A stretch of DNA of 64,000 nucleotides from Escherichia coli (GTDB taxonomy: Bacteria > Pseudomonadota > Gammaproteobacteria > Enterobacterales > Enterobacteriaceae), in NCBI RefSeq assembly GCF_030384885.1, contig NZ_CP128613.1. One strand, given 5' to 3'. Positions 37,387-37,463 of the stretch are shown piece after piece. The position numbers were made by a program, and so were the translations under genes. Within the stretch, counting starts at the first letter, position 1. Each line of letters opens with the position of its first letter. Under the pieces are notes generated by a model, which saw only the letters and a program-made list of their open reading frames with translations, did no database searches and was not told the origin of the DNA.

Positions 37387-37400
37387 TTGCGCGAAATCAA
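37387..37400. promoter_or_regulatory. FNR-like site upstream of fdnG
   Basis: TTGCG-CGAA-ATCAA against the consensus TTGAT-N4-ATCAA, about 65-78 nt upstream of the fdnG start codon. Confidence 0.4.
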
Positions 37401-37447
37401 AAAGAACAGCTGTTTGCCACAAAATAATCCGCCTGCGCAAATTGACC

Positions 37448-37463
37448 TACCTCAATAGCGGTA
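37448..37463. promoter_or_regulatory. NarL 7-2-7 heptamer pair upstream of fdnG
   Basis: On the fdnG sense strand TACCGCT-AT-TGAGGTA: two inverted TACYYMT-type heptamers separated by 2 bp. Confidence 0.45.

Follow-up and report, generated by a model that had tools for sequence, protein, structure and literature searches.

The FNR and NarL control sites of fdnG are very probably those of the classical Escherichia coli promoter, unchanged in this strain

The control region lying between the divergent genes fdnG and yddG is almost certainly the classical one of E. coli fdnGHI, the operon of formate dehydrogenase-N, with its sites unchanged in the strain studied here. The FNR and NarL sites of fdnG are already known and have long been described, and finding them here is correct but ordinary. 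The value of the result lies mainly in annotation: within the window, i.e. the whole 64,000-nucleotide stretch of DNA that was analysed, this E. coli lineage seems to keep the textbook oxygen and nitrate control sites of formate dehydrogenase-N, and the regulation of the respiratory operon, which a previous sequence-only reading of the region had held to be intact, probably is so in this strain.

By its sequence, the locus is the fdnGHI/yddG divergent region of E. coli. The fdnG gene starts with an ATG at 37322 on the minus strand and yddG with an ATG at 37554 on the plus strand, separated by an intergenic region of 231 bp. A 501-bp query covering this region (37200–37700) matches 5,413 of 5,426 complete E. 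coli genomes, the annotation beneath the match always being fdnG and yddG. Compared to K-12 MG1655, the intergenic region is 99% identical and carries two substitutions only, at 37435 and 37409 (−84 and −58 relative to the fdnG start deduced below), each a C in place of the A of K-12; both lie between sites and touch no motif. The K-12 fdnGHI control region has the same locus and neighbors, shares the six curated sites described below with sequence and spacing unchanged, and is also identical to the window in the extended −10, the 5′ leader and the start codon. The genes past yddG are intact in the window and exist as remnants in K-12.

Past yddG, at 38695–42536, the window holds an intact gene for a 366-aa porin, followed by two ORFs (421 and 416 aa). 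In a genome that is 100% identical over the matching 501 bp, we found adhP, a toxin–antitoxin pair, fdnI-fdnH-fdnG and the divergent yddG and, beyond yddG, a porin, a hypothetical protein, a leucine-rich-repeat protein and narU-narZ. The hypothetical and leucine-rich-repeat proteins are the counterparts of the 421- and 416-aa ORFs; at the place of this whole stretch, K-12 has the yddL and yddK remnants only. This stretch is probably the accessory block next to which the sequence-only reading had placed the operon, and the gene-content changes there left the fdnG promoter undisturbed. Over 37200–37700, identity reaches at least 99% in only 19 of 5,415 E. coli records, the remainder being at 95–99%, which indicates a less common lineage as the source of the window; since the intergenic part is 99% identical to K-12, the divergence within the 501 bp sits in the flanking coding sequence.

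Both motifs on which the sequence-only reading relied, TTGCG-N4-ATCAA and TACCGCT-AT-TGAGGTA, are present, and positions 37387–37463 span precisely the stretch bounded by the promoter-proximal edge of the FNR box and the distal edge of the NarL 7-2-7 site. The region also contains a second FNR-type box at −97.5, NarL heptamers at −77 and −124, an extended −10 and a conserved block from −78 to −66, none of which that reading mentioned. The features belonging to fdnG are the following:

37351, minus strand: deduced fdnG start (A), 29 nt before the ATG at 37322 and 9 nt past the last T of the −10 hexamer
37360–37368, minus strand: extended −10 TGtTAGTTT of the fdnG promoter, −17 to −9
37387–37400, minus strand: FNR box TTGAT-TTCG-CGCAA, centre 37393.5, i.e. 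−42.5 from the deduced start
37417–37429, minus strand: conserved block, −78 to −66; consensus of other genera gACTATTnAGnGG, window GGATTATTTTGTG
37425–37431, plus strand: NarL heptamer TAATCCG (CGGATTA on the fdnG strand), centre 37428, i.e. −77; curated for b1474
37442–37455, minus strand: second FNR-type box TTGAGGTAGGTCAA, centre −97.5, sharing 8 bp with the −100 NarL heptamer
37448–37463, minus strand: NarL/NarP 7-2-7 site TACCGCT-AT-TGAGGTA, heptamer centres 37460 (−109) and 37451 (−100), dyad −104.5
37472–37478, plus strand: weak NarL heptamer CACCACT (AGTGGTG on the fdnG strand), centre 37475, i.e. −124; curated for b1474

We compared these motifs with the curated sites of the CoryneRegNet/RegulonDB compilation, as reproduced in the MotifAdjuster supplements. 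For fdnG (b1474), the compilation gives the NarL sites TACCGCT, TGAGGTA, CGGATTA and AGTGGTG and the FNR sites TTGCGCGAAATCAA and TTGAGGTAGGTCAA, all six of which are unchanged in the window. The FNR box reads TTGATTTCGCGCAA on the minus strand (37400 to 37387) and TTGCGCGAAATCAA, of the form TTGCG-N4-ATCAA, on the plus strand (37387–37400); it agrees with TTGAT-N4-ATCAA at 8 of 10 positions and keeps the TTG...CAA core, and TTGCGCGAAATCAA is the curated FNR site of fdnG, the same as in K-12. The 7-2-7 site reads TACCGCTATTGAGGTA on the minus strand (37463 to 37448); its two heptamers, inverted and separated by a 2-bp gap, each match TACYYMT at 6 of 7 positions, and TACCGCT and TGAGGTA are the curated b1474 heptamers flagged as the 7-2-7' pair 3a/3b. 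The comparison with the published fdnG promoter, which the sequence-only reading had proposed, thus bears it out: both of its motifs are the curated FNR and NarL sites of b1474, unchanged with respect to K-12. Of 5415 E. coli records, 5406 carry the same 30-mer around the FNR box, and 5348 carry the same 30-mer around the 7-2-7 site.

Data from K-12 concur. FNR peaks at yddG/fdnG were reported in two independent studies, one by ChIP-chip and one by ChIP-seq; activation of fdnG is attributed to FNR with nitrate and to NarL, NarL and NarP being named as co-regulators, and the gene belongs to a group of four for which 7-2-7 sites have been reported. Binding of phosphorylated NarL and induction by nitrate are likewise established in K-12. 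A comparative study including plant-pathogenic enterobacteria places the E. coli fdnG sites at −42.5 for FNR and at −77, −100, −109 and −124 for NarL, and reports the −42.5 site as conserved.

The spacing of the motifs is that of the published promoter. With a single assumed start at 37351, the FNR site at −42.5 and the NarL heptamers at −77, −100, −109 and −124 all fall on the motifs, so that one free parameter accounts for five published positions; placing FNR at −42.5 puts the 7-2-7 heptamers at −109 and −100, as published and in line with the sequence-only reading, which had judged the distances compatible with the classical promoter. The FNR box is centred 28.5 bp upstream of the conserved −10 hexamer TAGTTT, counted to its first base; given the deduced start, the box would occupy the class II activator position, overlapping the −35 region. 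The fdnG promoter has no recognisable −35 hexamer, and a strict scan of the intergenic region for sigma-70 promoters and terminators returned nothing, its rules excluding the activator-dependent fdnG promoter as well as the TATAAA of yddG; that no full sigma-70 promoter is found is what is expected of an activator-dependent promoter.

The strongest computational support for both sites comes from conservation. We collected the fdnG loci of 80 Enterobacteriaceae species, 88–100% identical over the FdnG N-terminus, and stacked their upstream regions gap-free on the FNR box; in this stack, the mean of the unassigned columns is 0.51 bits. Every one of the 80 fdnG upstream regions contains a TTGATTTnnnnCAA box, with half-sites at 1.97 of 2 bits per column, and the extended −10 TGtTAGTTT averages 1.66 bits per column over 81 sequences, at a constant distance from the FNR box. 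In 74 of the 81 sequences, the best 7-2-7 match begins exactly 63 bp ahead of the FNR box (62 bp in three more); the median score is 12.3, compared to 0.4 for the 99th percentile of scores elsewhere. Some 60 distinct 16-mers are found at this position, all with a TA(C/A)YYM...KRR(G/T)TA pattern; an offset that stays fixed and a palindrome that is kept despite sequence turnover form the pattern expected from selection on a dimer-binding site.

The other NarL heptamers are conserved to different degrees. The promoter-proximal part of the −77 heptamer (matrix score 4.22) is conserved across genera, and the −124 heptamer has a low matrix score (1.72) and is unconserved beyond Escherichia (0.29 bits versus a background of 0.51). 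The −78 to −66 block averages 1.1–1.3 bits versus 0.51 for the unassigned columns; it holds part of the −77 heptamer and runs past it. Overall, this phylogenetic footprint over 80 species marks as conserved the FNR box at −42.5, the extended −10, the 7-2-7 site and the −78 to −66 block, and as lineage-specific the −97.5 FNR box and the −124 heptamer.

Two observations accompany the footprint. We compared the −78 to −66 block by eye with the consensus sequences of several regulators, CRP, IHF, ModE, ArcA, NsrR and TyrR, and none of these fits. In three outlying Enterobacteriaceae (loci L077, L079 and L080), the best 7-2-7 match lies 40 bp before the FNR box and not 63, i.e. about two helical turns closer.

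The readings that compete with the classical promoter can now be weighed, beginning with the one in which the motifs match degenerate consensus sequences by chance and are devoid of any regulatory role. Motif statistics leave room for it. Allowing up to two mismatches, the 64-kb window contains 58 matches to the FNR consensus versus 39.5 expected, and 8 matches to the 7-2-7 consensus versus 3.2 expected. With a matrix built from 62 ChIP-bound sites, the FNR box scores 10.36 and ranks only 7 among ~64,000 positions, below the 11.55 that is the minimum among the very sites building that matrix; with a matrix of 45 curated sites, it scores 10.83, ranks 8 and outscores 58% of the curated FNR sites. 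The 7-2-7 site, summed over a matrix derived from 68 curated NarL heptamers, scores 12.26 and ranks 4 in the window, where ~1.7 equal or better matches are expected in shuffled sequence. From motif statistics alone, neither site is separable from chance in 64 kb. Both rise above chance because they occur together within an intergenic region of 231 bp, are identical to curated K-12 sites of experimental origin and are conserved. The FNR ChIP peaks over this region in K-12 also speak against chance, and so do the FNR box present in every species and the 7-2-7 offset that holds while the sequence changes; in practice, the conservation data already refute the chance reading, which we regard as extremely improbable. 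The sequence-only reading had named matrix scores below threshold as grounds for rejecting its assignment, and the FNR box does fall below the threshold of Myers et al (2013), being missing from their Table S6 (threshold ln p −10.75). Since this sub-threshold box is nevertheless found in 80 of 80 species, the score is a poor test for refutation. Note that, once the threshold is loosened until each ChIP-seq peak contains a motif, more than 10,000 sites are called across the genome (Myers et al, 2013), so that passing a stringent threshold does not define real FNR sites; here, matrix thresholds would have thrown out a genuine one.

A further reading takes the upstream box, TTGAGGTAGGTCAA at −97.5, as the main FNR site in vivo and the −42.5 box as secondary. 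The upstream box is the top FNR matrix match of the whole window, it is curated as the second b1474 FNR site, and Table S6 of Myers et al (2013) lists no other site for yddG/fdnG. The centre of their ChIP-seq peak, 1545309, falls at about −87 by our own coordinate conversion, at a distance of 10.5 bp to the −97.5 box and of 44.5 bp to the −42.5 one. Set against this, the −97.5 box occurs only in the Escherichia loci of the set (L002–L006), whereas the −42.5 box occurs in all 80 species, keeps a constant spacing to the conserved −10 and is retained in the alignment with the plant-pathogenic enterobacteria; moreover, the missing −35 can be replaced only from −42.5, and the overlapping NarL heptamer forces part of the −97.5 box. 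The two readings are compatible, and both boxes may be occupied. We consider it very unlikely that −97.5 is the main site; the box as such is already known and lineage-specific. A bidirectional module, in which the 7-2-7 site, the −97.5 box or both also control the divergent yddG promoter, is somewhat easier to entertain though still improbable. It draws on the following elements:

37481–37486, plus strand: possible yddG −35 CTGACA, with an 18-bp spacer to the −10
37502–37510, plus strand: predicted yddG extended −10 TGcTATAAA, as read from the sequence

In favor of shared control, 73 of the 80 species have yddG as the divergent neighbor, the intergenic length hardly varies, and the extended −10 of yddG, seen on the opposite strand as the block ttata.cattttt, is conserved in 64 sequences; from a predicted yddG start near 37517, the 7-2-7 dyad would be centred at about −61.5 and the −97.5 box at about −68.5. 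On the other side, the yddG start is only a predicted one, Myers et al (2013) give fdnG as the regulated operon at this peak, a literature search for a link between yddG and NarL found none, and the constant spacing may merely reflect a compact intergenic region. Literature searches for ChIP-exo data on fdnG and for a description of its promoter returned nothing useful. As for the role of the Escherichia-specific −97.5 box, we would only tentatively suggest that, given the 8-bp overlap with the −100 heptamer, FNR and NarL or NarP compete or cooperate there, or that the box and the 7-2-7 site also drive the yddG promoter; if true, either form, FNR/NarL interplay at −97.5 or shared control of yddG, would constitute a genus-specific layer on a textbook promoter.

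The classical fdnGHI promoter, our preferred reading, would operate as follows. Without oxygen, an FNR dimer would bind TTGATTTCGCGCAA at −42.5, taking the position of the absent −35 hexamer, and would bring sigma-70 RNA polymerase to the extended −10 TGtTAGTTT by class II activation. With nitrate, a dimer of phosphorylated NarL would occupy the 7-2-7 site at −104.5, along with the weaker heptamers at −77 and −124, and this binding would increase the FNR-dependent transcription. NarP would be able to occupy the same 7-2-7 site. Its role at fdnG is weak or competitive. The control sites of fdnG are backed by footprinting and mutational work, including mutational proof of the −42.5 site.

The same logic is found at the narGHJI promoter, with FNR near −41.5 (site TTGATCGTTATCAA) for anaerobic induction and upstream NarL heptamers for nitrate induction. 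At narG, however, the NarL sites lie further upstream (−89 and −195 regions), they include no 7-2-7 and an IHF site is on the map, whereas at fdnG a true 7-2-7 is present, only 62 bp away from the centre of the FNR site. The promoters of nirB, napF, nrfA, yeaR and ogt share with fdnG the inverted heptamer pair with a 2-bp spacer, for a NarL or NarP dimer, but carry it closer to the start (about −38 to −78), while the fdnG 7-2-7 at −104.5 is upstream of a class II FNR site; at ogt and yeaR, a 7-2-7 can activate without FNR.

Downstream of the promoter, the fdnGHI operon looks functional, judging from its reading frame, a predicted RNA element and its gene set. The fdnG frame reads through an in-frame TGA (36732–36734) after codon 195, and an Rfam search of 32000–40000 placed SECIS_3 (84.3 bits) at 36682–36740 on the minus strand, directly after this TGA, so selenocysteine decoding of fdnG appears intact; this element was the sole match, with no RNA family in the fdnG–yddG intergenic region, and fdnH and fdnI are present in the 100%-match genome. 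In Citrobacter, Salmonella and a few others (loci L007–L013, L015–L016, L019–L023, L031, L033, L042 and L045), the distance from the FNR box to the ATG is 126–223 nt, compared to the usual ~76–82 nt, which points to an insertion of ~50–145 nt in the fdnG leader of these loci.
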